Shown here one piece after another: positions 3,765 to 25,028 of a DNA stretch of 64,000 nt. The stretch's first letter is position 1. Every line of letters begins with the position of its first letter. Source of the DNA: Escherichia coli (GTDB lineage Bacteria; Pseudomonadota; Gammaproteobacteria; Enterobacterales; Enterobacteriaceae); the NCBI RefSeq assembly GCF_003334305.1, contig NZ_QOWS01000003.1; one strand, 5' to 3'. Below the pieces are notes generated by a model. The model ran no database searches. It was not told the DNA's origin and was given only the letters and a program-made list of their open reading frames with translations. A program made the translations under genes and the position numbers.

Positions 3765-3820
3765 TTCTATCTAAGTATATGAATATTAACTGTTTTTTAA
3801 TTAAAGGCTTATAACTGAGA

Positions 3821-3854
3821 AGCCTCCGCCCTAATGGGGAGAGGCTTTTGTCTT
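3821..3854 (+). terminator. Possible terminator hairpin after the integrase gene
   Basis: agcctc / gaggct inverted repeat followed by tttgtctt; the loop is long (14 nt), so this is weak. Confidence 0.3.
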
Positions 3855-3965: not shown

Positions 3966-5435
3966 TCAAATAACTCCAAGCTTTGCATACAATTCTTTTT
4001 TCTCTTTCATGCTGTTATCCAATGGTGCTACTCGCAATGCCGCTTTCAAATAAGCCGCAGCACCAGAGTAATCACGCATTTGCTCGCAAACTAAAATGAG
4101 TTGGCTTAACACATGGAACTTCATTGGAGTTGTTTGGTTTACTTTCTCCAATAGTACTCTTGCTTCAGAATATTTCGCTTCAAGGCCAAGGATAGATGAT
4201 TCTAAATACATGGTGGCCGCGTTTTCTGCTTCAGCTTGCTTTCGTTGCAACAGCCAGAAATTTGCTTGACTGATATTGCGTAACTGTAGGTTTGCCTTAA
4301 CTATCAACTCGAACAAAGCTGCTGGTTGAGTCAATTTACCCTCAAGTAAGATCGCTTTATTATCTTCTACAACTTTTTCAAAGTCGAATAAGCGATTGGC
4401 GCGATACAAGGCAATAAGTTGCTGATGTAAAGCTTGTAGATCTTTACTGCGGCTATACTCCTGCGACGCTAATTGAGCAGCTTTTTGGTAAGATTGATCG
4501 GACATTGCTTCAAGTACCGCACTTGACCAGTCCTGAGCAGGTTTAGTTTGAAAAACGGGAGCAATAGCACCAACTTTTAATTGCTTAGTGGCAGCAGAAT
4601 CAAATGCATGAATTAAGTCGGAAATAGTGGAAAAGCGATCCTCCGCTCGTTTTTGTAAACAAGTAAGAACCACTTGTTCCAGGTCCGTATGAATAGAGCT
4701 ATTAATCTCTGTCGGAAGCTTGAAAGGTGCGTGGCGCTGAACTTGTGCTGGCGTATCATGGGGCAGCTTTCCTGTCAGCAGCTGGTATAGCAAAACACCT
4801 AAGCTATAGATGTCGCCCAATAGTAGCTCTTCCAGGCTGCCTCTACGGCTATCGACGTTGGAGAACTCTGGGGCCGAATACAGCACAGTCCCGCCATTTT
4901 CACGGGTACGAACGTAAATTTCTTCTGGTAAAGCTGAGCTGCCAAAGTCCGTCAACTTCACCAGGTCCCGCTCTCCAACCAAAATGTTATGTGGCTTAAT
5001 ATCTCCATGAGATATTGGTACTGGTAATTCGGCCAAATAATGCACAGCACAGAGCACTTGACGATATATTCTGAACAACCGTTCATAGGTCTGGCCAAAA
5101 TTACGCTGCCTGTCATCGAGCTTTTGCGCCAGGGTTTGGCTGGGAAAATACTCCATTTCAATATAGAACCATTCATTATCTATACGGCCCATATCAAAAA
5201 TTTGCACAATATTTTCGTGCGGCTCGACGTTTAAAAGCTCTTTACCTTCGGCAAGCTGACGGTCTTCCCGAGTAATATCCTTAGGGATTTTTACTGCGAC
5301 AATTTTTCCATCTTTCAGGCGTTCCGCCCGCCATACCCAGCCATGGCTGCCATCACCAAGGCATTCAAGTAACAGGTATTTGTCACCAAGGCGTTTATTC
5401 GTCCCTGGCAAAAAATGTGCTGATTTTATATTCAC
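3966..5435 (-). CDS. Hanks-type Ser/Thr protein kinase with a C-terminal helical (TPR-like) domain
   Basis: 489-aa ORF with Gly-rich loop LGDGSHGW, catalytic lysine in VAVKIP, catalytic loop HGDIKPHN, DFG, SAPE and DIYSLGVLLYQLLTG; C-terminal half is helical and repeat-like. Last gene of the operon; its start overlaps the upstream gene stop by 4 nt. Confidence 0.88.
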   Translation of the reverse strand: MNIKSAHFLPGTNKRLGDKYLLLECLGDGSHGWVWRAERLKDGKIVAVKIPKDITREDRQLAEGKELLNVEPHENIVQIFDMGRIDNEWFYIEMEYFPSQTLAQKLDDRQRNFGQTYERLFRIYRQVLCAVHYLAELPVPISHGDIKPHNILVGERDLVKLTDFGSSALPEEIYVRTRENGGTVLYSAPEFSNVDSRRGSLEELLLGDIYSLGVLLYQLLTGKLPHDTPAQVQRHAPFKLPTEINSSIHTDLEQVVLTCLQKRAEDRFSTISDLIHAFDSAATKQLKVGAIAPVFQTKPAQDWSSAVLEAMSDQSYQKAAQLASQEYSRSKDLQALHQQLIALYRANRLFDFEKVVEDNKAILLEGKLTQPAALFELIVKANLQLRNISQANFWLLQRKQAEAENAATMYLESSILGLEAKYSEARVLLEKVNQTTPMKFHVLSQLILVCEQMRDYSGAAAYLKAALRVAPLDNSMKEKKELYAKLGVI

Positions 5436-5974
5436 ATCAACACCTCATAGTGAATTCTGTCCAAAACAATCATGTTCAGGTTTTTGATAAATAAAAAGCG
5501 ACTAAATACCACCTCAACATCAGGAGCGGCGATTACTTGGGTACCCGTGGACGAAGTAAAACCCATACGGCATATGTCTTTCAGTTTTTGAGTATCAGGT
5601 ACACCTACTAAGCCTTGGCTCCAGGCACTGAGGACCAGGGTTTTGGGGCAATGATTCCAGCGCTGTGCTGCTTCCAGTAAGTTTTTTAATTTTTCTTCCA
5701 GCTTTTGCTGCCCCTTCGCTGAACCATCAAAGCGTTCAAATTCGATTAAACACACAGGCGATGCAGAAGATTTATGAAACCAGCCCGAGTCAGAGCGAAT
5801 ATCAGCACCAAATGTCCCTGGAGCCGGGCATTCCACTACCGCCATAAATGACTGTTCATGCCCGAATGTATTCCAAACGCTACAGCCCAGGCTGTGGACC
5901 AATACATCCTGGTCCAATAGCTTACCGCTTGCTAAAAGTGGAAATGTCTCATTTACCCAGGCAACTTCAGGCAT
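5432..5974 (-). CDS. Hypothetical protein (about 180 aa), operon partner of the kinase
   Basis: ORF track 5432-6031; the first ATG is at 5974 (complement of 5972-5974), 7 nt after the HerA-like stop and preceded by AAGGTG. No recognisable motif. Confidence 0.7.
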   Translation of the reverse strand: MPEVAWVNETFPLLASGKLLDQDVLVHSLGCSVWNTFGHEQSFMAVVECPAPGTFGADIRSDSGWFHKSSASPVCLIEFERFDGSAKGQQKLEEKLKNLLEAAQRWNHCPKTLVLSAWSQGLVGVPDTQKLKDICRMGFTSSTGTQVIAAPDVEVVFSRFLFIKNLNMIVLDRIHYEVLM

Positions 5975-5981
5975 AGGCACC

Positions 5982-7667
5982 TTAGCCACTGAAAGAGCCC
6001 CAAACACGCAGTACCTCTGGTGATTCACCACCGTGAATTAATGCCTTACTACCAACTTTAACAAGCAGTGGTGCAGGGATTGAACGACCACACACCAAAG
6101 CTTCACCGGTTGATAAACTCGGGAGTTCCTCCAGATCAGCTTTGCTCACCATATCTGATGCTTTAGCTATAAATCGTTGATCGTCAGGGTTCTTTAAGCG
6201 CATCGTAATTAGCGTATTGCACTGAGAGGTCACATCTGAATCTAATTTCGATGGACGCTGGCTCACAATGCCAAATCCAACGCCAAATTTACGACCTTCA
6301 CCAGCGATCTTTTTAATAATGCGGTGACTGACTGCGTTGCCGCCGGCCGGGGCAAAATTATGACCCTCTTCGTAAATGATAAAGCATGGGCGCAGCGGGT
6401 CCGTTTTGCTCGAGGCTGCTTTTAATATTTCACTAGATAACAGTGCACAAATGACTTGCTTAGCGGTATCACTCAAACCTTGTAAGTCAACAACGACTAA
6501 ACGCCCCTGTTGATTGCTCGGGCGACCCACCATTTTGTAAATATCAGTTGGCTCAGCCATTGTTGCGCTGTAAAAACTTTTAGCTTCATTAAGCACACGT
6601 GAAAGCTTCATCGAGGCGACGGCGGCACTACGGCCTGATAACGCCTTCGCCTCAGCTTCAGAAAGGTCGTCCCACTCTTTTAACTCTTCAATACCATCAC
6701 CTAATAAGAAGCGTAGGCGGTTAATATCTCGTGGCTCAGTCTTATCTGCAGAGCGCCAATAACGAATTGCAACATCGAGTACTCGTTGCTGCGGTTCCGT
6801 TAAGCCAGGTAATATTTCAGCAATATCGTCCATTTCAAAATGGTCAAACTGAAGCGCTAATGGCGTATTCTTACTGGCGTATTTATGTTTAAAAGATTCA
6901 TGCTGCGGCGAGTAAACCTGAATACCTGCACCGGCGGCTTGCAGCTTTTCAAAGGTCTGTTTTATCAGTGGCAGTGCTTCTTGATCACGCTTATCGTCAG
7001 TGGCTTCTAAGAAGCTTGAGAATTGCAGATTACCGCCAGCGAGGGCTTTACCGTATTCACCATGTGGGTCAAATACTACTACCGTACCGTTATTAACCGC
7101 AACTAAACGCTCAATAATGCGGCCAACTGTATAAGACTTACCTGAACCCGTCATTGCCAGAACAGCCAAATGCTCAGTGACCAACTTGTTCACGTCAATA
7201 AAAACAGGAACTGTATTCTCACCTTTGTCGTAGCCTACTAAGTTACCTAAGTGCAAACTGGAGTGTTCATTAAATTCGTAAAAATCACTCAAAAACTGAA
7301 AATCGACGGTTTCAACAGCGGTACCCGGGTTAAGCGGGCGACGTGGAATTTTGATTTGACGAGTAACAGGATCGCGGTAACCAACCAGCTCGACCTGAGC
7401 AAACATATTCTCACCAGTTACATTCGCACCGGGCAAAAGCTCAAGCTCGGTTACACCATCGCCAAAGCCGGCGTTATAGAGCATATTAGTACGGCTTATC
7501 TTGGTCACTCGCCCCAGTACGGCGACTTGCCCCTCATCTTTGCGTTCCTGGTGCATAATGCGTACAAACTCACCACGGCGTACTGAAAACGAGTCTTGTA
7601 CAACCATAGTTAACTGACTGGCATCACCAGTGTTACCGACTAATTTACCTAAAACTTTATAAGCCAT
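5982..7667 (-). CDS. HerA/FtsK-superfamily P-loop ATPase (DUF87-like)
   Basis: 561 aa; Walker A LAMTGSGKSYT, then VVVFDPHGEY, Walker B-like FIIYEEGHNF and a C-terminal GVGFGIVSQRPSKLD segment typical of HerA-type ATPases. Confidence 0.82.
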   Translation of the reverse strand: MAYKVLGKLVGNTGDASQLTMVVQDSFSVRRGEFVRIMHQERKDEGQVAVLGRVTKISRTNMLYNAGFGDGVTELELLPGANVTGENMFAQVELVGYRDPVTRQIKIPRRPLNPGTAVETVDFQFLSDFYEFNEHSSLHLGNLVGYDKGENTVPVFIDVNKLVTEHLAVLAMTGSGKSYTVGRIIERLVAVNNGTVVVFDPHGEYGKALAGGNLQFSSFLEATDDKRDQEALPLIKQTFEKLQAAGAGIQVYSPQHESFKHKYASKNTPLALQFDHFEMDDIAEILPGLTEPQQRVLDVAIRYWRSADKTEPRDINRLRFLLGDGIEELKEWDDLSEAEAKALSGRSAAVASMKLSRVLNEAKSFYSATMAEPTDIYKMVGRPSNQQGRLVVVDLQGLSDTAKQVICALLSSEILKAASSKTDPLRPCFIIYEEGHNFAPAGGNAVSHRIIKKIAGEGRKFGVGFGIVSQRPSKLDSDVTSQCNTLITMRLKNPDDQRFIAKASDMVSKADLEELPSLSTGEALVCGRSIPAPLLVKVGSKALIHGGESPEVLRVWGSFSG

Positions 7668-8814
7668 TATTCAATCCCTCATCGAGGCCTGCCAACCACC
7701 CTGCCTCAATATCATTATTCTTTAGTGCCTGGTGTAAACCCTGGCGATAAAACGTAGCAAATTTAGGTAAAATACCAAGCTGTTGATAACCAAGTAATTG
7801 TGGCAACGGCATTGCATTACCTTTGTTTTGCATATCCAGCACCATCAGGCGAGAGGCAACTAAATCGAGATCAGCACTTTTCCATTCTGGTTCGTCACCC
7901 GCTAATTGCACCATTTTTATCTGTCCACCTCGGGCACTACGGAAGTGAAAACCAATTAGACCTTGCTTAGCTTCAATATTGGGTTCAATGCGCTTTTCTT
8001 GTTCAGACAAACGAAATGCGATGGTGCGCGAATAGTTGCCTAAAATGCCATTGATAAATCGCAAATCTCCCACGCCAACCAAACTTTCATCCAGTCCTTC
8101 CAGATTTTGCATCAACTCTTTAGAAAACCCATCAGATGCTAAAATTTGTTTGCGTCCTTGTTCGGTACGTAAATCTTGTTTGGCGATACTTACAATGGCA
8201 CTAAAGCGCTCAGCCAAAATGCTCGCAAGTACTACACCATTTTGATTCCAGGGAAAAATTCTGGAGCGATGGTTTTGCCAAAAAGTTTCTATCACTTGTC
8301 TGGTTTTTTCGTACTCTTGTTTATGACGGACATTTCTCTCCAGCGGAGCCATATCCCGTGCTAAAAACAACGGCGTATCCAGCAAAATTAAATCGCCAGG
8401 CTCATAACCTAAAAGTTTTTTCTCAACTAACTGATAAGCCTGACGAATTTCAATTAAATCAAGCCGTTTACGCTGAGCTTCAAAATCAATATCATCCAGT
8501 TCTGATACCGAGTCGCTACCCACCGTGCTGACTTTATTGTCATCTATTAACAAATCTGTGCGCACTGCTGCACTGGCATAAATAAAACCACCCAATACCT
8601 TGTCTAAGCACGATTTAGTCGCAATACCGGCTACGCGTAAATTAACAATTGTGGGCTTGGGGACCGCTTTCACTAAGCCAGCATCACGGAATAGCGGCGC
8701 CACTTGCTCAATATCACGGACCTGTTTAAGCAAGCGTCCTGCACTTCCCGGTAAGCGAAGCTGGCTATCGATGGCGAGCGATTGCGCTAAATTCATCGTT
8801 TTGTTCTCATTCAT
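7657..8814 (-). CDS. Hypothetical protein (about 386 aa)
   Basis: ATG at 8814 (MNENKTMNLAQ...) lies 2 nt after the stop of the upstream gene; its 3' end overlaps the HerA-like start by 11 nt. No confident motif. Confidence 0.75.
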   Translation of the reverse strand: MNENKTMNLAQSLAIDSQLRLPGSAGRLLKQVRDIEQVAPLFRDAGLVKAVPKPTIVNLRVAGIATKSCLDKVLGGFIYASAAVRTDLLIDDNKVSTVGSDSVSELDDIDFEAQRKRLDLIEIRQAYQLVEKKLLGYEPGDLILLDTPLFLARDMAPLERNVRHKQEYEKTRQVIETFWQNHRSRIFPWNQNGVVLASILAERFSAIVSIAKQDLRTEQGRKQILASDGFSKELMQNLEGLDESLVGVGDLRFINGILGNYSRTIAFRLSEQEKRIEPNIEAKQGLIGFHFRSARGGQIKMVQLAGDEPEWKSADLDLVASRLMVLDMQNKGNAMPLPQLLGYQQLGILPKFATFYRQGLHQALKNNDIEAGWLAGLDEGLNNGL

Positions 8815-8816
8815 GC

Positions 8817-9665
8817 TTATAGCGTTCCTGTGTGTAGCTGCTCGCCAAGTAATGGGGCATAAGCCCAATATTGCGAGGCTTGTAGGCATGTTTTACCGGT
8901 AGCTGTTATGCCCGCGTCGTCGATAAAATCGTGCTGCCGCAACATCTCACCCCGCTTGACAATATCAAGGCTATTAACATCAAACATCAGCTTAACCGCA
9001 TTATGCTCAGACAACGCTTGTAAGTTCATGCCACCGCCAGCGTAGAGTAATAGCAATACAACTAGATCGTGCTTATCTGGCGTGTAGTCAGTTGATGGCG
9101 CTTTAGGTTCGATTATTCGTTCAGCAATGCCTGCATGGTCCACAAACCAATTCAACCAGCTCACCAGGAGCTCACTATGATCGAGTAAAGTCAGCGACCA
9201 CAAAGGTAACGTGGTAAAGGCTAATAGCCCACTGTTGCTGTGTTTTCGTATGTAGCGGGTATGCACTACATCACCGGCCTGGTGCTGGTAGCGATCTGCG
9301 CTGCCAGTAAAGCCAGCAATAGCCTGGTCTGTTTCACTGGCTAGCAAAGCGGTTAGCCCCGGTTCCTGCCCCCTCAAGCTCGCTGGTACTAACTGCCAAT
9401 CCAGTGGATAGGGCAATTGCGCTAATAAGGTAAATTGTTCTGCTTTCAGGTTTATTACCAAAGCGGCACAACCTGCCTGCATAGCCCAGTGATACAGGTG
9501 CTGCATAGTATTAGCGTCAGTCAACTCTTCTGCTTGCACTATTAACAAACCGCTGGCTGGCGGCGAGCTAATCCAATCCTTCATTAAGGGGGTAGCCCCC
9601 GCAACAGTTTGCAAAAAACGGCCTTTACGATTACTGGCCAGTGCCGCAGATAAATAACGACTCAT
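8817..9665 (-). CDS. Hypothetical protein (about 282 aa)
   Basis: ATG at 9665 (MSRYLSAAL...), 10 nt after the stop of the 1428-aa gene; the longer frame to 9692 needs a non-ATG start. No recognisable motif. Confidence 0.72.
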   Translation of the reverse strand: MSRYLSAALASNRKGRFLQTVAGATPLMKDWISSPPASGLLIVQAEELTDANTMQHLYHWAMQAGCAALVINLKAEQFTLLAQLPYPLDWQLVPASLRGQEPGLTALLASETDQAIAGFTGSADRYQHQAGDVVHTRYIRKHSNSGLLAFTTLPLWSLTLLDHSELLVSWLNWFVDHAGIAERIIEPKAPSTDYTPDKHDLVVLLLLYAGGGMNLQALSEHNAVKLMFDVNSLDIVKRGEMLRQHDFIDDAGITATGKTCLQASQYWAYAPLLGEQLHTGTL

Positions 9666-9675
9666 CGCGTCACCT

Positions 9676-12600
9676 CTACAAACCAGTGGCAAAGGTAAGG
9701 CGCATTTTTACAATGCCTTTGTCTACAAGTCCTTTCTGTTGCTCAGGTGTTAACACGGGTTCCTGATTTTGGCTCAAAGCCTTATAAATCGGTTGCCAAT
9801 CCGCCAGTGTTAAGCCTGTATCATTTAATATTTGCTCACCTTGACTCTGCCATTTGGCCTGGGTGCTTTCACACACCTGTTGAAGTTCTCTGACACCCAA
9901 ATTGCTCACATCCTCCAGAGTCAACGCTGCTGGTTCCGCTTGCTTTTGAGAAGCCAATAGCGGTTTTAATAACGGCAGCCAGCTGTTTACCTGTGCGATG
10001 GAGTTGCGTCTTACTTGGTTTAGACGCTCTTCAATTTTAAGTAGCTGGCCTTGAATCGGTGTAAGTTGACCGCGTGCCGGTTTTAAAAGCTCTTCTGGTA
10101 AATCCCGTAACGATGAAAACTGCCCATTGCGCAAACTGTTTTGCATACTTTGACGCTTGCTCTCTGCATCACTGGGGAGATCGGCAATAGCATCTTCAAT
10201 GAGCTGTAATTTCATTACCAGTTTTGGTAGCTCTGCAATGTCATCGGCGAACTGATACTCAGCCGTGGCGCTACTAAGCCATTCTTGCAGTTGTTGTGCA
10301 CGTAGTTTTTGCTCTGTGAGGTTATTAACCAGCTTACTAAATCGTTCTTTGCAGTTGCGGTAGCTGGACAAAATATGCCCCTGAATCTCCGCTATCGGCA
10401 ACTGTTGATCATTGTGCAGGTTTAAACCCACTTCTTGCGCTAAGGCTGAAAGCTTGTCATGCGCTCTACCTAAATCGAGTTTACGCAGGTAATGCAGTAA
10501 GGTATCGCTATCTGCTTGCTGCTCTTTTCGGCCAGTGGCACTGCTGGTATCGTCTTTTAACGCTCCATCTAAAATATGACCTATGGTGCGCAGCGTGTTG
10601 GTGTACAGACGTTTCGGAAAATTCGTCAGCGGGGCACACTCTGTTTCAACATCTATGATTAAATCAACGAGTCGGTTGTTGATACGCTCAGCGCTGCACT
10701 CAACAAACTCGGCAAATAAACAGGCCTGTTCAATCCGTTGATAAAGCGAGGTCGTTTTGTCTTCTAAGCTGAGAATATGGGCATCTTTTAGCATAGGCCT
10801 GGAACTATTAAGCGGTTTAACCTTTGCTACCAGCTCCAGCACTTCAGCGCGTTTGTGGATAAGCCCTGCCAATACTTTCGTGTCGTTGGCCTCGACCATA
10901 TCAGCCAATTGTTCTTCTTGCTGTTTGAGCACGTTAAATAGCGATTGTGCTTTTTCCAGCTGCTCTTTAGCTTCCACGGTGACGAAACCCAGCTTATTTT
11001 TACCCAGTGGCGCGAACATTTCATTAATGCGTGCATAACCATACACGCGGCTCATGACTTCCACATTGGCTGCATAGCTGCCCATATCGTTACCACGGAA
11101 CCAGTTTTGCGCTTCTCTAATGGCATTTTCTAAGCGGGAGCGCGGGTAGTGCTCCCAAATTGCCTGTTTTTCTGTTGGATTGGTTAAAGTGAGTAAGTTC
11201 AGCTCTCCACACCACCACATCCAGTCATTAAACACGCCTTTGGCGGTAACACTCGTTTCAGCCACATAGGCGAAATAAAACTGTTGCTTAAAGCCTTCGA
11301 ATTGCCACTTGTGCTTTTTATTAGGGTGAGCAATACGGGCTAAAAATAATGGGATCTGCGCCTGGCTTCGCTGCACATTATTAAGTTCAGTAAATAGCCC
11401 GGCATGTTCATCGGCAGTGTAACCTTTGGCAATATAGCTGCCCGGCACCTTAAGTTTATCCAACAAGCTGCTCAGCTCATTCACTGGCACGCCGTGTTGC
11501 TGCTGTAAATCGAGAATGCCATTTAACTCAGGGTGAGCAATGGCCAGCTGATACCAGCCTTTAAACAACAGGTCTCGGTCATTCGGTGATAATTTACCAT
11601 CTACCTTTAACGGCCAGGCAATTAAACCGCGCTGCTGCAAACGCTGGCGCCACTTGTGAATGGCATCCGTGGCAAAGGTTGTCAGGGCATGCAGCTTGTT
11701 TTTGAATTTCGCGGTAAAGCTGTCGGCAGTTAAATTCACGCCGTGCAACTGACATGCTGCCAAACTTAAGCCAATACGCTCTAACTGGTCTGCTTCGCTT
11801 GGGTTGACATAATGCAGCAGTATCGCATCACGCAACTCATTTCTTTCATCCAGTCGGCTGTATTGCTCCATGAGATGTGCAGAAGCAGTTAACGCTAATA
11901 CTGGCGTGCGACCATTTTGGTGGCTGTGGTTTGCCGCAAAGGTGTGAAGATTGTTCAGCTCAATTAGGTTGCTGACCCAGGCAAACAAGGCTTTACCTTC
12001 TGGGTGAAGCTTAAATCCATCCAGGGTAAGTAAACCACCCTGGCGGCCACGGGGCTCGGTTAAAATGGCCAAAGGTGCATCGTCGCTGCCCGCTTTATTA
12101 CTCAGCAAGTTTTCATCATAGGTCCAGTTGTTATCAAGTAATCTCACAAAGCCCGTTACACGGGCTAATGCCTTGATGAGCGGCTTCTGGCTACTTTGTT
12201 TGCTAAGTTCACTCATTGCCTGTTCATGAGCGTCGCCCATGGCGGGATCTTTAAAAATCAGTGAGTTTTGCTGGGCACTGCGATAGCGCAAATCCAGGCG
12301 CAGTAACATCGCCACACTGGGGCCAATATGCGTTGCTTCGCTGGCGTCCAGTTCGGTAGTTTCACCCACTAGCTTGTGCCATAAGGCATCGGCAGCGAAT
12401 TCAATCGCTGGGTGGTCATACAGCAAGCTGAGTAAGTATTTAAACTCACCTTTTGACAGAGGTAGTAATACCGCGCCTTTATCGCCGCTTGCGGCTTGTT
12501 CTTTAATTGAAAAAGTACGCAGGTTATCCAGCAAAGTATCTAAGTTCAGCGCTTGATCTACTGCAGGGTAGTACCATTCATCTTTATCGCGGCGGAATTT

Positions 12601-13962: not shown

Positions 13963-15260
13963 AACGACGATCCTTGAAGGTTTATTCTATTGGCGGCGCG
14001 TTTTTTATTGGCATAGCAGTTTTGCGCCAGTTGCTTAATGGTCCGTTGTAACGTTTGGCTTTTGTAGCCAAATAGTGGTGCTAACGGCAGGCTATAACAG
14101 GCATCGCTGAAGCTTGTATGAATTCGATATTGGCCGGCCTCTCCACGACCCGCCTCGGTAAATTGCCAGATTTTTTTTGCCAACAATTCGGCAATGAATG
14201 AGCTCAGGACGCGGTTTAGGCGGTTGATGCTTTCCGTGTTCGCATCGAGTGCCGGGTAGAGGGGTATATTGAGCTCACCGAGCAGAAGCACAAGAAACTC
14301 GGCCAAACTACCCAGACTCACCTCATCACCTTCAATGCCCTGTACCGCCACATTTATTTGACCGGGGGCAAAGGCATTTTGCCCGGCAGGTAAGGTGAGC
14401 AACAAACCGCCACGTTGCTCGGCAGCCCAGGCATCTTGCACAAAGATAATTAGACTGAGTAAAAATAACCAGGGCTGTTGGGCGAATAGCTCGGTAAGCG
14501 GCATGTTGTCATGACCCGAGCGGGACACCAATAACCAATCGGCATTGGGTTTAAGGTTATGTTCATCAAGCAAGGTATTAGGGAGTGCTAACAACCGCCC
14601 ACTACACCAGTTATTTGTCAGTTGTTTTGCGGTGACATCCACCGCTTGTATAGGTGCCGGTGGTTCATTTTGTTCGCTCACGGTAAACAAGGTATAGCTG
14701 GTGCGCAAAATACGACATAGCGCGGGAATGGCAGCATTGTCGTTTAGGCTATGACCGAGCAAATCGCGTTCGGTTTGTGCCAGAGGGCCGGCAATGATTT
14801 GCGGCGTGGTGGCAGTGCTTTCCAGCTGGGCTAAGACCCATTCACTGGCATTGCCCAGTTGCTGAATGAGTTTAACCAATACCATTGTGTCACTCATCGT
14901 GCCTGCTTCCTGGCAGCGAGCGGCGGCTAAATTGATCCAATGTTGGCGAACATCTGGGTTTAAGCCCAACAACGCTAATTGCCATTCACCTGACTGGCTT
15001 AAATCGTTAAAGGCATCAAGCAATGGTGCAGTGAGGCTAAAGGCGCTAACGATATCCGTTTCAGCGTCGTTCTTTTTCGGCTGTATTATTGGTTGTAGCA
15101 GTGACCTAAGGGCAGGCACAGCCGCCAATAACAATGCTGCTTTGTTGGCGTTCAAACCACCTTGTTGCCAAAGCTGCAGGCAGAGGTTAAGTGCCGCTTC
15201 GCTATTTACGGGGTCGTTATATTGCCTGGTTGTACTGCTGTCCGTGCCCCTTGTCTCCAT
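13959..15260 (-). CDS. Hypothetical protein (433 aa)
   Basis: Complete ORF starting METRGTDSS; 2-nt gap to the upstream HsdS-like gene and 4-nt overlap with the downstream gene. No recognisable motif. Confidence 0.78.
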   Translation of the reverse strand: METRGTDSSTTRQYNDPVNSEAALNLCLQLWQQGGLNANKAALLLAAVPALRSLLQPIIQPKKNDAETDIVSAFSLTAPLLDAFNDLSQSGEWQLALLGLNPDVRQHWINLAAARCQEAGTMSDTMVLVKLIQQLGNASEWVLAQLESTATTPQIIAGPLAQTERDLLGHSLNDNAAIPALCRILRTSYTLFTVSEQNEPPAPIQAVDVTAKQLTNNWCSGRLLALPNTLLDEHNLKPNADWLLVSRSGHDNMPLTELFAQQPWLFLLSLIIFVQDAWAAEQRGGLLLTLPAGQNAFAPGQINVAVQGIEGDEVSLGSLAEFLVLLLGELNIPLYPALDANTESINRLNRVLSSFIAELLAKKIWQFTEAGRGEAGQYRIHTSFSDACYSLPLAPLFGYKSQTLQRTIKQLAQNCYANKKRAANRINLQGSSL

Positions 15261-15262
15261 CT

Positions 15263-16741
15263 TTACTCTTCAGCCTCCGCTTGCGCCGCCTCTTCCAGCA
15301 AACTGTATAACTCATCCACATCGCTAAATAGCGGTGTGGCACCTTCAATGGCATAACCCTCAGCGCTCAGTTTGCTTAAAATCGCTTGATCAAAGCTGCT
15401 GTCGCCATCTTCCAGGGCTTGTTGGGCCTGGATTAGTTGTTGCTCAGTCAGTTGGCCTTCGATTAATGACTCAACTAGAGTTTTGGCAGATGCTGTTAAC
15501 TTTTTTGCATATGCTGCCGTAGTAACGGCTAGTCTCAGCTTACTTCCTATTTCTCTATTCTTCGCTATGTCAATCGGAATCAGAATATTTAACAGGTTTT
15601 CTGAAGTCACTTTTGGTACAACGCTGCCAGTAGTCACACCTTTCCAACACGGAAAGTGTTTATCCAGGAACCTACAAATAGACTCAATATCATATTCATC
15701 TTTTACCTTTAAAACCCAAACATGGTTGTTTGCCCAAAACTTTCCATCAGCTACATTTGCACAGCCAATAGAGCCATCTTGCGCAATAATCAGATATTTA
15801 CCGTTGAAATTGAATTCGGTATGAGTATCTATTGGACCTGATGCGCCATAGTAAAAATATGGTCCGGGTACTCTGTCTTCCGATTTAATAGGGTCGCCAC
15901 ATTTGCATTTACTAATGAAATTAGATAGTTTTGATGAATTCCTAAAGGTCATTTGACTATCGGCCGCACGTGCAAACTCAGGAGCTAAAGACACTGCTGA
16001 TAATACCTGTTGTTTCATTCTTCTAGGTTTCAATGTTAATGAATCAACAAGGTTGAAGTGAAATAAATCTTTAATTTTTCTATCAGCCATTCCTTCAAGT
16101 CGTTTCGCCCAAGCGCGTAACTGCTCGGCTTGGCGAACTTTATCCCCGATGTATTTTTGGGCTAGAGGTAAAACTTTAGGAACCGCTAGCGAGCGGACAC
16201 TTGGGAAGTCAATTGCAGGGCGAGTTGCGCCATATGCTTCCTTCCAGATCGCTACTTGTCCGGTTTTGCTATTCAAATATGCCACCAAGAAATAGGCGTC
16301 AACTTTTTTGGGATCGGGCTTGAATCTGACTGAGTGCTGACTAATGTTGGCCGGTAGATGTTTAGCTGACACAACAGCCGATTTACCAAATTTTGCACCA
16401 GTAATCGTAAGTAAAACGTCGCCATCCACTAATCGGCTGCGCTTTAATTTTTCATCATCTTCATCGTTAATAAAAACAGCTTCTTCAGCTTGCAAGAACA
16501 TTTCTTCAACTTCAGAAGTGCGATAAAACTTAACACGGCCTTTTTCTAAATAATTTGCTCCTAAAGGTGTTGCGCCACTAGCCACCCCGCGCTTTGAATC
16601 AATTACCGCTTCTAGGGGCAAAGCACCTAGGTTGTCTTTTATCTTATTAATTTGTCTTTCAAATCGCGGTTGATAGTGCCAAGGATCAATCCGCCTTTCA
16701 GACAATTGTTCGGGTGTTCTTTTAAAAATAGTTGCCATCAC
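15263..16741 (-). CDS. Type I restriction-modification specificity subunit-like protein (HsdS-like, two target-recognition domains)
   Basis: Two repeated TRD-end segments (GATRPAIDFPSVRSLAVPKVLPLAQ and GVTTGSVVPKVTSENLLNILIPIDIAKNREIG) plus a helical C-terminus, resembling HsdS. Start is GTG at 16741 or ATG at 16738, overlapping the methyltransferase stop. Confidence 0.75.
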   Translation of the reverse strand: MMATIFKRTPEQLSERRIDPWHYQPRFERQINKIKDNLGALPLEAVIDSKRGVASGATPLGANYLEKGRVKFYRTSEVEEMFLQAEEAVFINDEDDEKLKRSRLVDGDVLLTITGAKFGKSAVVSAKHLPANISQHSVRFKPDPKKVDAYFLVAYLNSKTGQVAIWKEAYGATRPAIDFPSVRSLAVPKVLPLAQKYIGDKVRQAEQLRAWAKRLEGMADRKIKDLFHFNLVDSLTLKPRRMKQQVLSAVSLAPEFARAADSQMTFRNSSKLSNFISKCKCGDPIKSEDRVPGPYFYYGASGPIDTHTEFNFNGKYLIIAQDGSIGCANVADGKFWANNHVWVLKVKDEYDIESICRFLDKHFPCWKGVTTGSVVPKVTSENLLNILIPIDIAKNREIGSKLRLAVTTAAYAKKLTASAKTLVESLIEGQLTEQQLIQAQQALEDGDSSFDQAILSKLSAEGYAIEGATPLFSDVDELYSLLEEAAQAEAEE

Positions 16742-18885
16742 TCACCCCGCTTATAAGCCGATACAATCTTATCCAGATCGTTTGCGACACCGGCGTTATA
16801 GTCTTCGATATTGTTTTTCACCACATAACCCAATGTTTCAGCCACTGCCATAAACACGTCGGTTTGTGGCTCGGGCAAAAATTGCTCTGGCTGGTTGGGG
16901 TTAGCATGGCGTTTTTGTAAATACAAAATCGAGGTTTTGGCCCCCGTACCGGAGAGTTTAAAGCAGTCGCTCGGCAATGAAATTACTGCTTTTACAATAG
17001 CTTTACCGCCAACAAACTCGCCGGTTTTTTCGTCTTTTTTCCCCATAATGTACTCACGGACATAACGGTCGCCGGAGTTACATAAAATACCATCAGGCAG
17101 CACTATTAACAGGCGGCCACCGGGTTTAAGCAGTTGCAGGCAGCGGTCGATAAAAAGTACTGCTGGGTCAATAGTGGCACCTACCGGTTGCCAGTTGCCC
17201 TTGCTATCGGGCTTGCTGCCCAGCGCGAGCCCTGCGGTTGTAGGCTGCAGGCTGTAAAACGGCTTTTTATCAGTCCCGCCCGTTCTGCGCAAATCGGTAC
17301 GGTAGCCCGCCCATTTAGGCTCGCCGTTTTCATCCAGCTCTAAATCACCGATATCCTGCCACTTCATTTTCACGTGGTCATACCAGGCGTTGTAGCTATC
17401 AACGACTTTTTTGGTCGGACGAAAACCACCGAGCACTTGCTCCATATTGGCTTCGTAATTGGCTTTTGAGTTTTGACCATTTTTGCCTTTATCAAATTTA
17501 GGCGTACCGAACGGCGGGTTGGTGCAAATCAGGTCAAAGCTATTCGGCTTCAGAGCGTTAGTAGTGAGTGAGTTGTCGGTATAAAAAATCTGCGCTTTGG
17601 GGGCACCTTGCAATGCCATATTCACGCGGGCCAGCATTACCATGCGTGGTGCAGCATCGGCACCGGTAAATGCACAGTCGCGTAATTTTTGTTTCAATGA
17701 TTCTTTTTTATCGTCGGCCAGCACCAGCTTAAAATCGATCCATTTATCAATCTGGCTTAACGCCACCGAGCCAAAACCAAAGGAGCCACAGGTGGGGTCG
17801 CAGAAACGAAAATCGCCATTGGCTAAGCGCGATCGCATTTCATCGTCATCGTCGATGTCGTGCATAGCAATTTCTAGCATGGCCTGTTTTACTGGGTTTG
17901 GTGTTAAATAAACGCCAAGGCCACCTTTGGATTCAAAGTTAGCGCGTAGGAATACATCAAACACTCTGCCTAGTAAATCTCCTGACACATCAGCCAACGT
18001 GCCGTGTTCTTTCGCGATTTTACCGTCGTTGGTTTTTACCGGACCCAGGTTTTGTATTGCTTCCAGCAAATCCTGATAGTTTTTCGCAACAGACAGTCGC
18101 AGGTGTGTTTCTTTACTAAAGATGGGGTTACGTGAGCCATCATCTGAGATCACAACGTAGTTTTCGTGGCTTTTAAATTCCTCAAAGGCGGCTTTGATTT
18201 GGGCAACGGCTTTATCGCCGTGGCTCTCCACATATTGCCAATCAAAGACATCACGAAAACGCAGGGTATTTCCCTCATCATCTTTAAAGGTAAGGTCTTC
18301 ATCGTGATGCAGGCGGAAAGTTTCTAAAAACAGAAGCTTAGCTACTTCTTCAATAATGTCGTTCTTGTCGTTTACCTTGTCTTTGGTAACGCGATAAACA
18401 TTTTCATGGAAGGCATCAAATCGCTGCATTAAGCGTGTATAAACACGCATCGACCAGCGAAAGGTTGGATCACGCTCCATGCGATCAAAGCTACGTAATT
18501 CTTCCAGACCAGGCAGGGTATCTGCACCGTGGGTACCGTCAGATCCATCGGCACCGAACAAGGCCAAAATACGTTGGTTCAAGCCATCGTCCACAACGGC
18601 ATATACTGGCCAGTCACCTTCGATATCACTTAACAGCTGATAGGCTAAATCATCAAACTTTGCAGTGTCAGCGGCGTATTCCCAATGGCCTTCTGTCAGC
18701 GCAATCAACATGACTGGTGGCGTTAAGTTGCCTTCAACCAGGCCTTGAATGAGACCAGCCTTGGCGAATTCATGCTCGGGTAATTCGACCAATGGCTGAG
18801 TAAACTCGGAGTGCTGTTTGACCAGTTTATTGAACAGTGCTTCTAGCTGCTGTTGCGGGTCTTGTTTTTTTGCTTCTTTTGCCAT
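16738..18885 (-). CDS. N6-adenine DNA methyltransferase (HsdM-like) with an extra N-terminal region of about 350 aa
   Basis: 715 aa; AdoMet motif I-like DPTCGSFGFG and catalytic motif IV NPPFG; the domain order resembles the type I M subunit. Confidence 0.85.
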   Translation of the reverse strand: MAKEAKKQDPQQQLEALFNKLVKQHSEFTQPLVELPEHEFAKAGLIQGLVEGNLTPPVMLIALTEGHWEYAADTAKFDDLAYQLLSDIEGDWPVYAVVDDGLNQRILALFGADGSDGTHGADTLPGLEELRSFDRMERDPTFRWSMRVYTRLMQRFDAFHENVYRVTKDKVNDKNDIIEEVAKLLFLETFRLHHDEDLTFKDDEGNTLRFRDVFDWQYVESHGDKAVAQIKAAFEEFKSHENYVVISDDGSRNPIFSKETHLRLSVAKNYQDLLEAIQNLGPVKTNDGKIAKEHGTLADVSGDLLGRVFDVFLRANFESKGGLGVYLTPNPVKQAMLEIAMHDIDDDDEMRSRLANGDFRFCDPTCGSFGFGSVALSQIDKWIDFKLVLADDKKESLKQKLRDCAFTGADAAPRMVMLARVNMALQGAPKAQIFYTDNSLTTNALKPNSFDLICTNPPFGTPKFDKGKNGQNSKANYEANMEQVLGGFRPTKKVVDSYNAWYDHVKMKWQDIGDLELDENGEPKWAGYRTDLRRTGGTDKKPFYSLQPTTAGLALGSKPDSKGNWQPVGATIDPAVLFIDRCLQLLKPGGRLLIVLPDGILCNSGDRYVREYIMGKKDEKTGEFVGGKAIVKAVISLPSDCFKLSGTGAKTSILYLQKRHANPNQPEQFLPEPQTDVFMAVAETLGYVVKNNIEDYNAGVANDLDKIVSAYKRGE

Positions 18886-18935
18886 GATGTTTTCTAAAAT
18901 CCTTTAATACAGCCAATGGTTACTACAAATGCCGG

Positions 18936-19322
18936 CTAATTTATCAGTACCAGCAAGGGGCCTTTAATCTCTATCTGCGCGTGCTTCTGTGCCAGTTTGC
19001 GTATCTGCTGTTCACTGGTCGTAATACCAGCAGGGAGCTTTTTCAGTACTTGTGCAAGGGGCATGCGCCCACCAGCTTGATGCAACAATGATACCAAATG
19101 TGCCGCGATATCAGGTATAACCTGGTACGTTGCCGTTGTGGGCCCTTTTAGATGATTACTTTGAGGCAATGAGGCAAGCCATAGCGAAACTTGAGACTGG
19201 CTAAAGCCAAGTGTTTGCCAGAGGGTTTGGTTCTCATTAAATACAACGGCGGCGCTTCTGGGAGTTGCTGTTTGCTGAGTTATTAGTTGTTCCAGGCTTT
19301 GTCGCTGGTATTCATGGGTCAT
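18936..19322 (-). CDS. Small hypothetical protein (128 aa), possibly helix-turn-helix
   Basis: ATGA overlap with the McrC-like gene stop; a 50-nt gap precedes the methyltransferase gene. The segment TLWQTLGFSQSQVSLWLAS loosely resembles an XRE-type HTH (weak). Confidence 0.65.
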   Translation of the reverse strand: MTHEYQRQSLEQLITQQTATPRSAAVVFNENQTLWQTLGFSQSQVSLWLASLPQSNHLKGPTTATYQVIPDIAAHLVSLLHQAGGRMPLAQVLKKLPAGITTSEQQIRKLAQKHAQIEIKGPLLVLIN

Positions 19323-20662
19323 CTCATGCCTCCACTATAGGATACTGAAGCAGCCATCCGATCCAGTTTGGGGCTCATTGTACAGGACACGTCATTCGGC
19401 CACATCATCCTCTCACCGCGTTTTGCCATTATCCGGTATGGCACAACCCATAATTTTAAAGTCTCCGAGAAAGCAAAATGCTGCGCTATAGGTTGGCTAA
19501 AGTCATCATGCGCAGGGTAAATCAGATACATTTCGCCATTCCCACCAAGATATTTTTGTCCGTAGGCAAACATTTGATAGAAGTCAGCTTGTGCCAGTCC
19601 ATAGAGTGATTTTGTCTGCTGGCTGCTATTCACCAGCTTCCATTTTGTATCCATCACCATTTCGGTTTGAACTGGTTTGTGTGATTGAATCAGCAAGTCG
19701 GGGCGAAGCTTAAAGCAATCTTTAAGTCCATGCTTTACCAAAGAATAAGTTGCTGCTTGAGGTAAAACTTTGAGGTGAGGTGGTAACTCGTCGGGTAGGG
19801 TCTGTGCCACAAAGGATTCAAATACCGCTTCCATAGGGAACAAAAGTGATATCGCTTTGGTGTTTCCCTGCAAAGCACTCGGGCTCATTCCCCTCAGGAT
19901 CAATTGCGCCCATGCCATTGGCTCGTTGTAATGAGCCATACCACGCTCGAGGCGTAAGTTGTTTATATCACGTTCAATATCCCGGCTAAGTGGAATACCG
20001 TCAAACGCAAAACGCAGTTCGTAAAGCCAGCGTTGATTATCTGATGACAGCTGCAGACTAAGAAGCTTATCTAGTGCGGAGTGTAAGAGCCGATTGGCTG
20101 CACAATCAGGCATGTAGTCATCATAATCGACACAAAACTTATGGCGATTCACCGCGTTATGTCGCAGCTGTGCAGAAAGCATCAGCTTGCCCTTCATAAA
20201 AGCCAGATTACCTTGCTTGCTCACATAGTCGGAGCGTAAACCCTGTTTAAGCAATTGGCTGACGCTATGCAAAAACTGGTTAATAAAAATCTCAAGCAAA
20301 GGCATACGCTGAGCCTGAAGAGTGGCTTGCTGGGTTTGAATATGTCGGAACCCAGGCAGATGGCTTAGCATCGTCAGCAATGTTTGACGTGCATTAGCCG
20401 CTGTGAGGTTTTTACCAACCTTGGGCAGTATCTCAAGCTGGAAACCGTGAGGTGTTGAAAGCATCCCTGCGTAGTTTTGAACCTGAAGCAATTTGAAGCC
20501 TGAGCGAGAGGTGAGTTTGAGGAACTGGCTCCCTTGATTACTTGCCAGGCTAAGCGCTTCTAAATAATTAAAGACCTGTGGAGGCACCGGTTTTGCGCCA
20601 ACTGAAGCCGCTTTTCCACTCCCCAAGAGGTCATATTCAAAAACGGAGATAACTTCACCCAT
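19319..20662 (-). CDS. McrC-like PD-(D/E)xK nuclease
   Basis: 447 aa; RPDLLI ... MDTKWK arrangement typical of the McrC catalytic core; overlaps the upstream McrB-like gene by 8 nt, as in mcrBC. Confidence 0.8.
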   Translation of the reverse strand: MGEVISVFEYDLLGSGKAASVGAKPVPPQVFNYLEALSLASNQGSQFLKLTSRSGFKLLQVQNYAGMLSTPHGFQLEILPKVGKNLTAANARQTLLTMLSHLPGFRHIQTQQATLQAQRMPLLEIFINQFLHSVSQLLKQGLRSDYVSKQGNLAFMKGKLMLSAQLRHNAVNRHKFCVDYDDYMPDCAANRLLHSALDKLLSLQLSSDNQRWLYELRFAFDGIPLSRDIERDINNLRLERGMAHYNEPMAWAQLILRGMSPSALQGNTKAISLLFPMEAVFESFVAQTLPDELPPHLKVLPQAATYSLVKHGLKDCFKLRPDLLIQSHKPVQTEMVMDTKWKLVNSSQQTKSLYGLAQADFYQMFAYGQKYLGGNGEMYLIYPAHDDFSQPIAQHFAFSETLKLWVVPYRIMAKRGERMMWPNDVSCTMSPKLDRMAASVSYSGGMR

Positions 20663-22730
20663 GATTTACTGCCTGCTCATCAAGGGGAGTCTGTTGGGGC
20701 TGATAAATTGAACGATAAGCCTGTGGAATATTCCAGATCTCTTGATCGAAATCTTTGAGCTCATAAGCTGTTGATTGCTGATCATGGCGTCGTAAACCAT
20801 GGTTGTTACCAAAAAGCGTATCGAGATCGTCGGTTTTCTCAATCACGAATTGCAGGTTGTCGTCTTGCTTTTGATTGTCTGCCAGCACCAACCGGATCTT
20901 GTTCCAGTCATCGAAAAAGTATTCCTGTAAAAGCGGAATGATCTTTTTCTGGAATGCGATCTTCAATTGTTTAAACGCAGCTTCTTCATCACCGGCATCG
21001 AGTGCATTTTTTACCGGCATAAAGAACGCATGCCCCAGCGTATGTTCACGATCGTAAAGAGCCTCGATGCGGCTATTGAGTTTCTCTAACAACGACTCGA
21101 GCTCTATGCCTTTCACCTTAGCTTCACTCAGTAAAGAGAGATCAGGCATCATTTCGACAAAGTCAAAGCGACGGCGCAAAGCCGTGTCCATCAGAGCTAA
21201 AGAACGGTCCGCTGTATTCATGGCTCCGATGATATCGACATTGCCGGGTACGCTGAAGTGATCACCGCTATAAGCCAGTTGCAGGCTCATCGCATTGGGC
21301 ATGCCTGCACGCTTGTCTACTTCAATGAGTGAGATTAGTTCACCAAAGATCTTGGATATGTTACCGCGATTGATCTCATCAATGAAAATGGCGTAGCGAT
21401 GTCCTGGATCGGCATTCGCACGTTGGCAAAGGCGCATAAAGATACCCGGCTCAATGGGATAAGAGATATTGCCACTCTCGTCAGAGCGAGCGCGTATACC
21501 TTCAATAAATTCTTCATAGCCGTAAGATTGGTGGAACGTAACCACCGCAAAACGCTGGATGGCTTCGGCAGATTTAGGGCCACGTTTAAGTTCGGCGTAG
21601 AGCTCTACCAAATCCTCCACTTGCTCGAGCTGTGAATCAACTAGAAACCATTCGCTGTTATCTGTTTTGTTAAATACGGCAGGCTCACGCCGATTCTTAT
21701 AATCAACGGTTAACGACTCGGGAACTGTATAGGATTGCAAAGCTGCCCAGGCAGTATTCGATAGATTGCCATTACGACCGTTTAATAATGCCTTACGTTG
21801 AAACCACATATGTTCAATAATTTGGCGAACTTTCGCTCGTTTCCCAAGATCGAGCAGCACCAGCGTTATAACCTGCATCCAGTTCAACGATTCAAGGCGA
21901 GAATCCAGCCAGGCATCACGATCAGCGGGAACAGCATGAGAAGTGTACTCTTTCATTTTTTGCTGCAACCTGAAGGTCTTGCCAGTGCCAGGGGGGCCAA
22001 AGAAGATCACGTTAGTTGGTGAATGTAGGATGATCTTGTTCTCGATGGGCTCACTGCGGGTTATGGATGTAGTGCTAGCTACTTTCTCCTGCTTTTGTTC
22101 ATTATCGCGTTCACGGAGCAATTCATAGAGATGCCAGATGGCCATATTCACATAATAAGGATCTGTATCAGGAGATTGGGCGTGTATGGCTTGTTTCAAT
22201 TCATAGTTTTTCTGTAACCAATTTCCGGTCAGTACCAAACCGAGATGGAAGTGCTGATTTAAGAATTCTGCTGCTTTATTAAAAGCATTCTCATCCACAG
22301 TACTGGTGTAGTTTTCTGGCGAGAACGCGGCAAAGACGCGATTTCTCAAACTCCAATACATACGCTTGAGAAGTCCGTTTTCTTTAGCTTGTTGAAGTGC
22401 ATTGCCAACATATTGGTAAGTTTCTTCATCCGGCTGTTGCCGAATTCGTTCAGTTAGTTCTCTAAGCAGTGGCAGGCTTTGCTGATATTCTGCTAAGGAT
22501 GGAACGCCCTGGCGAATACTTGCAATGCCGTTGTCACGCTCATACCAAAGCTGTTTGACCAGACCATCTGTTGCAGGCTCAGCAAAAGTTGAGGTTTGCT
22601 GTAGCAAAGTCGTAAATGCACGGTATCGCTGATACCATCTGGAAGCTGTGTAATTTTTATCTTTCGCCAGGGCATCAATCAATTCACTAATCGTTAGCCT
22701 ACCTGCTTCGACACTATCTACAAGAGTCAT
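20655..22730 (-). CDS. McrB-like AAA+ NTPase with a distinct N-terminal domain of about 230 aa
   Basis: 691 aa; Walker A GPPGTGKTF, Walker B FIDEINRGN and the McrB-type ALRRRFDF motif. First gene of the operon; GAGGAA ribosome-binding site 8 nt upstream of the ATG. Confidence 0.85.
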   Translation of the reverse strand: MTLVDSVEAGRLTISELIDALAKDKNYTASRWYQRYRAFTTLLQQTSTFAEPATDGLVKQLWYERDNGIASIRQGVPSLAEYQQSLPLLRELTERIRQQPDEETYQYVGNALQQAKENGLLKRMYWSLRNRVFAAFSPENYTSTVDENAFNKAAEFLNQHFHLGLVLTGNWLQKNYELKQAIHAQSPDTDPYYVNMAIWHLYELLRERDNEQKQEKVASTTSITRSEPIENKIILHSPTNVIFFGPPGTGKTFRLQQKMKEYTSHAVPADRDAWLDSRLESLNWMQVITLVLLDLGKRAKVRQIIEHMWFQRKALLNGRNGNLSNTAWAALQSYTVPESLTVDYKNRREPAVFNKTDNSEWFLVDSQLEQVEDLVELYAELKRGPKSAEAIQRFAVVTFHQSYGYEEFIEGIRARSDESGNISYPIEPGIFMRLCQRANADPGHRYAIFIDEINRGNISKIFGELISLIEVDKRAGMPNAMSLQLAYSGDHFSVPGNVDIIGAMNTADRSLALMDTALRRRFDFVEMMPDLSLLSEAKVKGIELESLLEKLNSRIEALYDREHTLGHAFFMPVKNALDAGDEEAAFKQLKIAFQKKIIPLLQEYFFDDWNKIRLVLADNQKQDDNLQFVIEKTDDLDTLFGNNHGLRRHDQQSTAYELKDFDQEIWNIPQAYRSIYQPQQTPLDEQAVNHG

Positions 22731-22899
22731 CGTGACTTTTCCTCTGTTGTGACATTACTTATTTTTTAATTAATATGAGGTATTCTAACTATATTGAGTT
22801 AATCGTTGTGACAAGTGCCTGTTATATATACAACTATCTGTTAACTCAGCTCTAATTTAAATACAATGTAAGGTTGTAGGGTGAATGCTGTTATCAACC
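22731..22899 (-). promoter_or_regulatory. AT-rich intergenic region, probable promoter of the 12-gene operon
   Basis: 169 bp between the HNH gene stop and the McrB-like start; candidate -35 TTGTCA (complement of 22809-22814) and -10 TATAGT (complement of 22788-22793) with a short 15-bp spacer, so the hexamer call is weak. Confidence 0.35.
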
Positions 22900-24964: not shown

Positions 24965-25028
24965 ATAAATTTCGCGTAATTGAAATGACAAATTGATAGC
25001 AGGGCCCCTTTACCGGGGCCCTGAAGCG

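Follow-up and report, generated by a model that had tools for sequence, protein, structure and literature searches.

We propose that twelve tightly packed genes on the minus strand of an Escherichia coli chromosome make up a composite locus, in which an McrBC-type restriction pair stands in place of the regulator at the head of a MADS-like operon. The genes lie at positions 3966–22730 of a 64,000-nucleotide (nt) stretch (contig NZ_QOWS01000003.1; hereafter the window), which is chromosomal and identical to E. coli strain A7 (NZ_CP028767). According to this reading, which we consider likely, the last ten genes (3966–19322) form a core orthologous to madl2–11 of the MADS-like system of Pseudomonas aeruginosa. 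The core combines a Type I-like DNA methyltransferase (MTase) and specificity (S) subunit, without HsdR, with a 1428-amino-acid (aa) NTPase, three proteins with no fold match (h128, h433 and h282), a predicted NurA-like protein and HerA, a predicted PD-(D/E)xK protein and a kinase with a TPR-like region. The same twelve genes are present in the RefSeq/PGAP annotation of the identical A7 record. They are given here in coding order, each with its junction to the following gene. Locus counts refer to 77 related loci, recovered from species representatives with a profile of the 1428-aa protein (h1428); iterated hidden Markov model (HMM) searches with all twelve proteins then gave the gene content of these loci.

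20655–22730 (−): McrB-family GTPase, 691 aa; NCBIfam McrB, 3.2e-43; PDB McrB chains 6ut3 and 6hz4, 6e-55 to 6e-40; Pfam AAA_5; overlaps mcrC by 8 nt.
19319–20662 (−): McrC-family nuclease subunit, 447 aa; NCBIfam McrC, 4.6e-27; 'McrC family' in PGAP; 4-nt ATGA overlap with h128.
18936–19322 (−): h128, small conserved protein found in 65 loci; ortholog of madl2 (36% identity); 50-nt gap (18886–18935) to the MTase gene.
16738–18885 (−): HsdM-like N6-adenine DNA methyltransferase, 715 aa; full-length PADLOC MTase_I match, 1577 bits; NPPF and DPTCGSFGFG motifs; ortholog of madl3 (70% identity); 1-nt TGATG overlap with an ATG start of HsdS (the PGAP choice) or 4-nt GTGA overlap with a GTG start.
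15263–16738 (−): HsdS-like specificity subunit with two target-recognition domains (TRDs); PADLOC Specificity_I, 7.7e-164; ortholog of madl4; 2-nt gap.
13959–15260 (−): h433, conserved protein found in 72 loci; ortholog of madl5 (38% identity); no Pfam match; ATGA overlap with h1428.
9676–13962 (−): h1428, large P-loop NTPase with a long helical C-terminal region; ortholog of madl6 (55% identity); 10-nt gap.
8817–9665 (−): h282, conserved protein; ortholog of madl7; 2-nt gap.
7657–8814 (−): h385, NurA-like (RNase H-fold) nuclease according to its predicted structure; ortholog of madl8; overlaps HerA by 11 nt.
5982–7667 (−): HerA-family hexameric translocase ATPase, 561 aa; NCBIfam HerA, 6e-59; PADLOC HerA, 1.2e-56; PDB 9x1l, 4e-48; ortholog of madl9 (87% identity); 7-nt gap.
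5432–5974 (−): h180, small protein with a predicted PD-(D/E)xK restriction-endonuclease fold; invariant D62, E78, E80 and K95 in a BamHI-like D...ExE arrangement; ortholog of madl10; GTGA overlap with the kinase gene.
3966–5435 (−): Hanks-type Ser/Thr kinase with a C-terminal TPR-like region, 489 aa; PADLOC mad6, 1.2e-45; NCBIfam kinases; ortholog of madl11 (59% identity).

An earlier note, made from the letters of the DNA, had described these genes as one translationally coupled operon and, on the strength of their packing, as one system. Its description of the geometry holds with minor corrections. With the PGAP starts, the eleven junctions comprise six overlaps of 1–11 nt, four gaps of 2–10 nt and the single 50-nt spacer, so that non-coding bases make up 71 of the 18,765 nt of the block. 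All four overlaps that the note had called ATGA-type exist, although two of them are GTGA. The short gaps at h282, h385 and h180 are obtained only with internal ATG starts and not with the longest open reading frames (ORFs). Junctions of at most 11 nt account for 10 of the 11 in the block versus about 7 of 19 same-strand junctions among the fim, uxu and yji genes of the window, counted manually. Shine-Dalgarno sequences are recognisable at most starts, with none at the MTase start, and the GC content of the twelve genes is 46.5% versus 54% in the left flank.

The ten core genes travel together far beyond E. coli. Sixty-two loci had enough flanking sequence to test the completeness of the core, and 56 of them carry all ten genes, h128-MTase-HsdS-h433-h1428-h282-h385-HerA-h180-kinase. 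Their order is the same in nearly all loci, with only rare rearrangements, and the junctions are mostly within 20 nt. These loci span about ten phyla or classes, including Alpha-, Beta-, Gamma- and Deltaproteobacteria, Cyanobacteria, Planctomycetota, Acidobacteria, Verrucomicrobia, Fibrobacter, Firmicutes and Chloroflexi. Because the ten genes keep their order and tight junctions across such distant phyla, it is strongly supported by this comparison that the methyltransferase/specificity half and the NTPase/HerA/kinase half constitute one system. The earlier note had argued that these two halves belong together and had named their independent occurrence as the outcome that would speak against it. 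For the two halves it had in mind the link stands. For mcrB and mcrC, which it had included, it does not: only 5 of the 77 loci have them and 72 lack them. The co-occurrence that the note had proposed to check for all twelve genes is found for the ten of the core.

The same data bear on whether the MTase and HsdS genes could be an orphan modification module of Type I that has nothing to do with the NTPase, HerA and kinase genes, such that the block would hold three systems. PADLOC and NCBIfam do see a plain Type I M and S here, and no HsdR is present. Yet M and S keep their position beside the other eight genes in the 56 complete loci, and a natural deletion in E. coli AR_0118 (L003) spares the other genes while it removes the M C-terminus, S, h433 and most of h1428 and fuses the N-terminus of the MTase to the C-terminus of h1428. 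We therefore regard an orphan modification module as extremely improbable. The retention of the other genes in this variant fits loss of the function of the whole unit and not the toxicity of an unguarded nuclease.

Some loci carry additional genes in or near the core. A conserved gene of about 360 aa lies between h433 and h1428 in distant loci (L034, 8931–9998; L066, 8852–9946; L070; L075); the L034 and L066 versions match each other at E 3e-16. The gene has no family assignment, and the core of E. coli and of Pseudomonas is without it. Locus L041 has an extra ORF of about 400 aa between HsdS and h433 (7556–8752). An ORF of about 500 aa is found about 1.5 kb upstream of h128 in L019, L021, L024–L029 and many others. 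It was picked up by the iterated HsdS HMM and considered as an S subunit, an assignment that neither pairwise BLASTP nor NCBIfam supported.

The core family has been noticed before. Maestri et al. described, besides the tested eight-gene MADS, a putative eleven-gene MADS-like system in defence islands of P. aeruginosa (bioRxiv 10.1101/2023.03.30.534895). In that preprint, madl1 is an HTH-WYL (helix-turn-helix) protein, madl3 a methyltransferase, madl4 an S subunit, madl6 an ATPase, madl9 a helicase and madl11 a kinase, with four proteins left unannotated. One h1428 homolog cluster comprises 330 members from P. aeruginosa, and its locus (L085) has eleven genes in the order BrxR/WYL regulator, 132 aa, N6_Mtase, S, 440 aa, 1428 aa, 275 aa, 380 aa, DUF87, 192 aa and Pkinase+TPR, which is the composition of madl1–11 given in the supplementary notes of the preprint. 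By BLASTP, the ten E. coli core proteins match genes 2–11 of this locus one-to-one and in the same order, at 29–87% identity. Both versions lie on integrase-associated islands. They differ at the head: the BrxR/WYL regulator (madl1) is missing from the E. coli clade, where the McrBC pair takes its place and overlaps gene 2. In annotation, our structure predictions add a candidate NurA fold for madl8 and a candidate PD-(D/E)xK fold for madl10.

MADS proper (mad1–mad8) of P. aeruginosa SMC4386, whose anti-phage activity was shown by experiment (bioRxiv 10.1101/2023.03.30.534895), follows the same logic as the block. It shares with the block an N6-MTase, an S subunit, a Ser/Thr kinase and a HerA-like ATPase, has an HTH gene at its head, and gives weak profile matches to mad2, mad5, mad6 and mad8. 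We nevertheless rejected this assignment. The authors' MacSyFinder model of MADS makes MAD6, MAD7 and MAD8 mandatory (bioRxiv 10.1101/2023.03.30.534895), and in PADLOC, where the kinase matches mad6 and HerA matches mad8, no protein of the block matches mad7, mad3, mad4 or mad1 even at E≤10. Counterparts of Mad3 (AbiEii/OLD-Toprim ATPase), Mad4 (DUF4276) and Mad7 (DptG-like) are thus absent, and the scores fall far below the NCBIfam equivalog cut-offs (MAD2, 111.6 versus 720 bits; MAD5, 90 versus 400; MAD6, 116.9 versus 460). The gene order is also unlike that of MADS, and the block has extra proteins in the 1428-aa NTPase and the predicted NurA-like and PD-(D/E)xK nucleases.

Other methylation-based systems resemble the block in part. 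With Type I restriction-modification (RM) it shares an HsdM/HsdS-type recognition module with TRD shuffling; a Type I system was rejected as no HsdR-like helicase-nuclease was found among the twelve genes or in the flanks. Pgl/BREX type 2, with its PglW kinase, likewise adds a kinase and a large P-loop ATPase to methylation-based self-marking. Here, the PglW match covers the kinase domain only and there was no profile match to PglZ, BrxC/PglY or PglX, and BREX/Pgl was rejected as well. The architecture of the block is not described in two comparative-genomics studies of Dnd/BREX-related HerA systems.

Six core proteins (h128, h433, h1428, h282, h385 and h180) gave nothing significant in Pfam, NCBIfam or PADLOC, and a literature search with the six RefSeq protein accessions found no papers. 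Profile searches against PDB sequences with alignments of h385, h180, h128, h282 and h1428 returned no meaningful matches, and h128 has no PDB match at all. Haemagglutinin HA2 matches to h1428 were rejected as coiled-coil noise. h1428 carries a Walker A motif, GRGKS (68–72), and a Walker B motif, LDELE (220–224); the alignment shows no variation at G68, G70, K71, S72, D221 and E222. The sole hint from Pfam, NCBIfam and PADLOC is a non-significant match to KAP_NTPase (E 0.42). Its homologs form 467 clusters, nearly all listed full-length matches being 1420–1470 aa long, and a tblastn search of 72,556 plasmids gave no match. In the kinase, the VAVK, HGDIKPHN and DFG motifs are intact.

For h385 and h180 we built AlphaFold2 models from alignments of the related loci, and both were confident. 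The h385 model suggests a NurA-like nuclease adjoining HerA, with TdpB of the TdpAB complex among its top structural matches. The h180 model, together with the invariant D/E/E/K residues, suggests a BamHI-like PD-(D/E)xK nuclease. On this basis, the HerA gene overlaps a gene for a predicted NurA-fold nuclease, as would be expected of a HerA-NurA pair, which links the block to HerA-NurA resection complexes and to HerA defence systems (TdpAB, SIR2-HerA, DUF4297-HerA). It differs from these in that its pair belongs to a methylation-based system, which also has a kinase and another nuclease. It also differs in its NurA-like family, which has no sequence-detectable link to canonical NurA. A family search with h385 over 1.84 billion cluster representatives returned 159 matches, 52 of them at E≤1e-30 and many of them fragments, indicating that the family is small, closed and without a sequence bridge to canonical NurA.

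The two genes at the head of the block have a different history. As in the McrBC Type IV systems of E. coli K-12 and, for McrB, of Thermococcus, an McrB-family AAA+ GTPase is followed immediately downstream by an McrC-family nuclease subunit, and the two genes overlap. The scores fall under the equivalog cut-offs (McrB, 148 versus 637 bits; McrC, 95 versus 338). Relative to solved McrB structures, the AAA+ motor has an insertion of about 135 aa after Walker A (residues ~255–388), and the N-terminal ~230 aa, the position of the DNA-reading domain, have no match in Pfam, NCBIfam or PDB. The McrC protein of the island bears an added C-terminal tail of about 20 aa compared with the 428-aa stand-alone version in E. 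coli, to which it is 92% identical over 426 aa. The island mcrC DNA loses homology to the stand-alone gene at or near the stop codon of the latter, and the added tail contains the ATGA overlap with the h128 start.

Where the pair occurs tells against its membership in the core. Among the 77 loci, those with McrBC are four Enterobacterales (Erwinia, Ewingella, Pantoea and Rosenbergiella), with the pair upstream of the core, and a Fibrobacter metagenome-assembled genome, in which a different McrBC lies downstream of the kinase and the McrB is related only in its motor domain (45% identity). Within E. coli, at least 80% of the block is present in 207 of 5,426 genomes (about 4% of complete genomes). 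About 740 further E. coli genomes match at below 99% identity, and every sampled row of these consisted of the McrBC pair only, at 90–97% identity. We estimate that some 700–800 E. coli genomes have the same pair (90–95% identity) and none of the other ten genes. In strain DA33135, for instance, the pair adjoins an Alw26I-type RM system, and the other ten genes are not nearby. Because hundreds of E. coli genomes have the pair by itself, 72 of the 77 loci lack it and a different McrBC was captured independently downstream of the core in Fibrobacter, the comparison indicates that mcrB and mcrC are not part of the ten-gene unit. They form a separable, self-sufficient module of the predicted McrBC type (Type IV, GTP-dependent).

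The reading of the earlier note, in which all twelve genes including McrBC are obligate parts of one defence system, has several observations in its favour. The packing is continuous and tight, mcrC and h128 overlap by 4 nt, and a single AT-rich region lies upstream. Every E. coli island with a complete core also carries McrBC, and the pair has joined the core twice independently. This reading is still very unlikely in our view, given the wide distribution of the pair by itself and its absence from most homologous loci. In addition, the two lineages have McrBC at different ends of the operon, and in E. coli the pair fills the slot of a regulator gene that looks dispensable.

This slot is seen most clearly in the closest McrBC-less relatives, Vibrio hannami and Pseudoalteromonas prydzensis, which are 85–87% identical in h1428. 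In these two, and in Pseudomonas frederiksbergensis, an HTH gene of 60–88 aa, of the Xis (excisionase) or MerR type, overlaps or abuts the h128 start (0–4 nt). In P. aeruginosa, a BrxR-type WYL regulator gene holds the position that McrBC has in E. coli. No HTH or WYL regulator gene (madl1) was found between 19322 and 22899, where McrB and McrC hold the position, and the added mcrC tail showed no similarity to the HTH gene of the McrBC-less relatives. As an HTH gene, a BrxR-WYL gene or McrBC is found there in different lineages, the operon head appears to be a variable slot, in which McrBC would have replaced the regulator in the Enterobacterales clade. We suggest that McrBC joined the operon by replacing a small HTH/WYL regulator and that the join added about 20 codons to mcrC, which now overlaps the h128 start. 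The pair could also have been functionally recruited into the MADS-like system, for example as an expression or activation gate in place of the lost regulator, or as a co-expressed, modification-dependent killer of phages that elude the methylation-based arm by becoming modified. We consider such recruitment distinctly unlikely; if true, the two independent captures at opposite operon ends would reflect selection for pairing.

Three non-coding features bear on how the composite is transcribed.

22731–22899 (−): candidate promoter/operator region for the block, upstream of the mcrB-like gene; AT-rich, 31% GC.
18886–18935 (−): 50-nt spacer before the MTase gene; unstructured, without a consensus promoter, with conserved AGAAAACATC right before the ATG.
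3820–3847 (−): stable GC-rich hairpin about 120 nt past the kinase stop, without a canonical U-tract; may mark where the transcription unit ends.

The upstream region is the single 169-bp AT-rich region that had been pointed out before. It holds the sole two copies of TGTCACAAC in the 64-kb window (22746–22754 and 22805–22813, minus strand), which lie 59 bp apart in the same orientation and could be a putative operator. No sigma-70 consensus match of at least 9/12 was found on the minus strand of 22731–22899 in a consensus scan. Inside the block, the same kind of scan gave no excess of terminator-like sites (20 versus 21.8 expected), in agreement with the earlier note, which saw no obvious internal terminator, and no excess of promoter-like sites (14 versus 28.4 expected). 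The note had also asked whether the 50-nt gap holds an internal promoter, and the scan shows no consensus promoter there. The spacer is less structured than shuffled sequence (z +1.69). The hairpin past the kinase gene is more stable than its shuffled counterparts (z −3.17; 0 of 200 shuffles as stable).

In the spacer, AGAAAACATC-ATGGCA (18886–18895) is kept in the close relatives L005–L012 and L030. The rest of the 50–86 nt is not conserved. A Shine-Dalgarno sequence is lacking, and translation of the MTase might be controlled at this point.

It is plausible that the twelve genes are transcribed together, and their geometry is compatible with a single transcript. Because the operon has lost its ancestral head and neither an internal terminator nor a consensus promoter was seen, the core is probably transcribed, in E. 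coli, with mcrB and mcrC from the region upstream of mcrB. It could instead be that two independent systems merely abut in a defence island, with the core promoter inside mcrC, towards its 3′ end, or in the 50-nt spacer and with no functional or transcriptional link to McrBC. The evolutionary separability of the parts would agree with this, as would the spacer of 50–86 nt before the MTase gene, which is a conserved feature of close relatives. Two independent systems nonetheless seem unlikely to us: nothing resembling a terminator separates mcrC from h128 or occurs in the spacer, promoter-like matches do not exceed chance (14 against 28 expected), the spacer sequence is conserved only in the bases right before the ATG, and the ancestral head gene is missing together with its upstream region.

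Several points count against the composite operon that we favour, and some of them at the same time lend support to two independent systems. Two weak promoter-like matches (9/12) lie on the coding strand inside mcrC, at 20147–20120 and 20004–19976, and could drive the core independently. The distance between mcrC and h128 is about 150 nt in Rosenbergiella, and the overlap is thus not conserved even among McrBC-bearing relatives. The NurA-like call for h385 is a prediction at the level of the fold and not of the catalytic residues. The preprint terms the MADS-like system putative (bioRxiv 10.1101/2023.03.30.534895), and we deduce its defence activity from composition and island context. Finally, the roles given to h128, h433, h282, h1428 and the kinase are guesses.

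With these reservations, the composite suggests the following mechanism. The M and S subunits would methylate a bipartite motif in the host DNA. The M/S complex, the large NTPase and the small partner proteins would together recognise unmethylated sites on incoming DNA, and the kinase may relay or gate activation. HerA-NurA, the PD-(D/E)xK protein or both would then degrade the DNA. McrBC would independently attack modified DNA, such that the island could cover both unmodified and modified invaders.

The island itself is about 20 kb long and is inserted at tRNA-Leu (leuX, 2214–2298), between ahr/yjgR and a nanS gene annotated as truncated (23984–24991, minus strand) at its right border, which is followed by nanM, nanC and fimB. 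The island integrase (2646–3764, plus strand) is frameshifted here and intact in strain 98221 (L084). E. coli islands with at least 99% identity elsewhere (L083 and L084) show wholesale swaps of one or both TRDs of HsdS, the usual signature of diversifying specificity; these are signs of an active, diversifying recognition module. In a second natural deletion, in E. coli SRY149 (L004), only McrBC, h128 and an MTase stub are left beside an integrase remnant.

Directly upstream of the block and on the same strand lies a gene for a phosphorothioated-DNA-binding HNH restriction endonuclease (22900–23829; NCBIfam PT-DNA_restrict, 2.9e-131). The deletion variants of E. coli retain it, but Erwinia L005, which alone among the relatives has enough upstream flank to judge, has no such gene upstream of McrB. 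It appears to be an independent, Type IV-like module, the third one that the island carries. Farther away, a penicillin G acylase gene (59567–62107, plus strand) lies between yjiS and yjiA. We take this interval to be the immigration-control region of K-12 (mcrBC, hsdRMS, mrr); if so, the strain lacks the classical McrBC and EcoKI locus.

While the core family was already noticed as MADS-like, the replacement of the regulator by McrBC and the two nuclease fold assignments are new here. In the current annotation of this locus, which is present in about 4% of complete E. coli genomes, six of the twelve genes are listed as hypothetical. The E. coli ortholog places a large and widespread MADS-like defence candidate in a genetically tractable host, and the NurA-like and BamHI-like assignments offer two concrete nuclease candidates for mutation. 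The natural TRD swaps in HsdS predict strain-specific N6-methyladenine motifs, which could be read from existing long-read data. The exchange of a regulator for McrBC would be a clear example of defence modules spliced into one another's operons, and it cautions that tight gene packing alone does not set the boundaries of a system.

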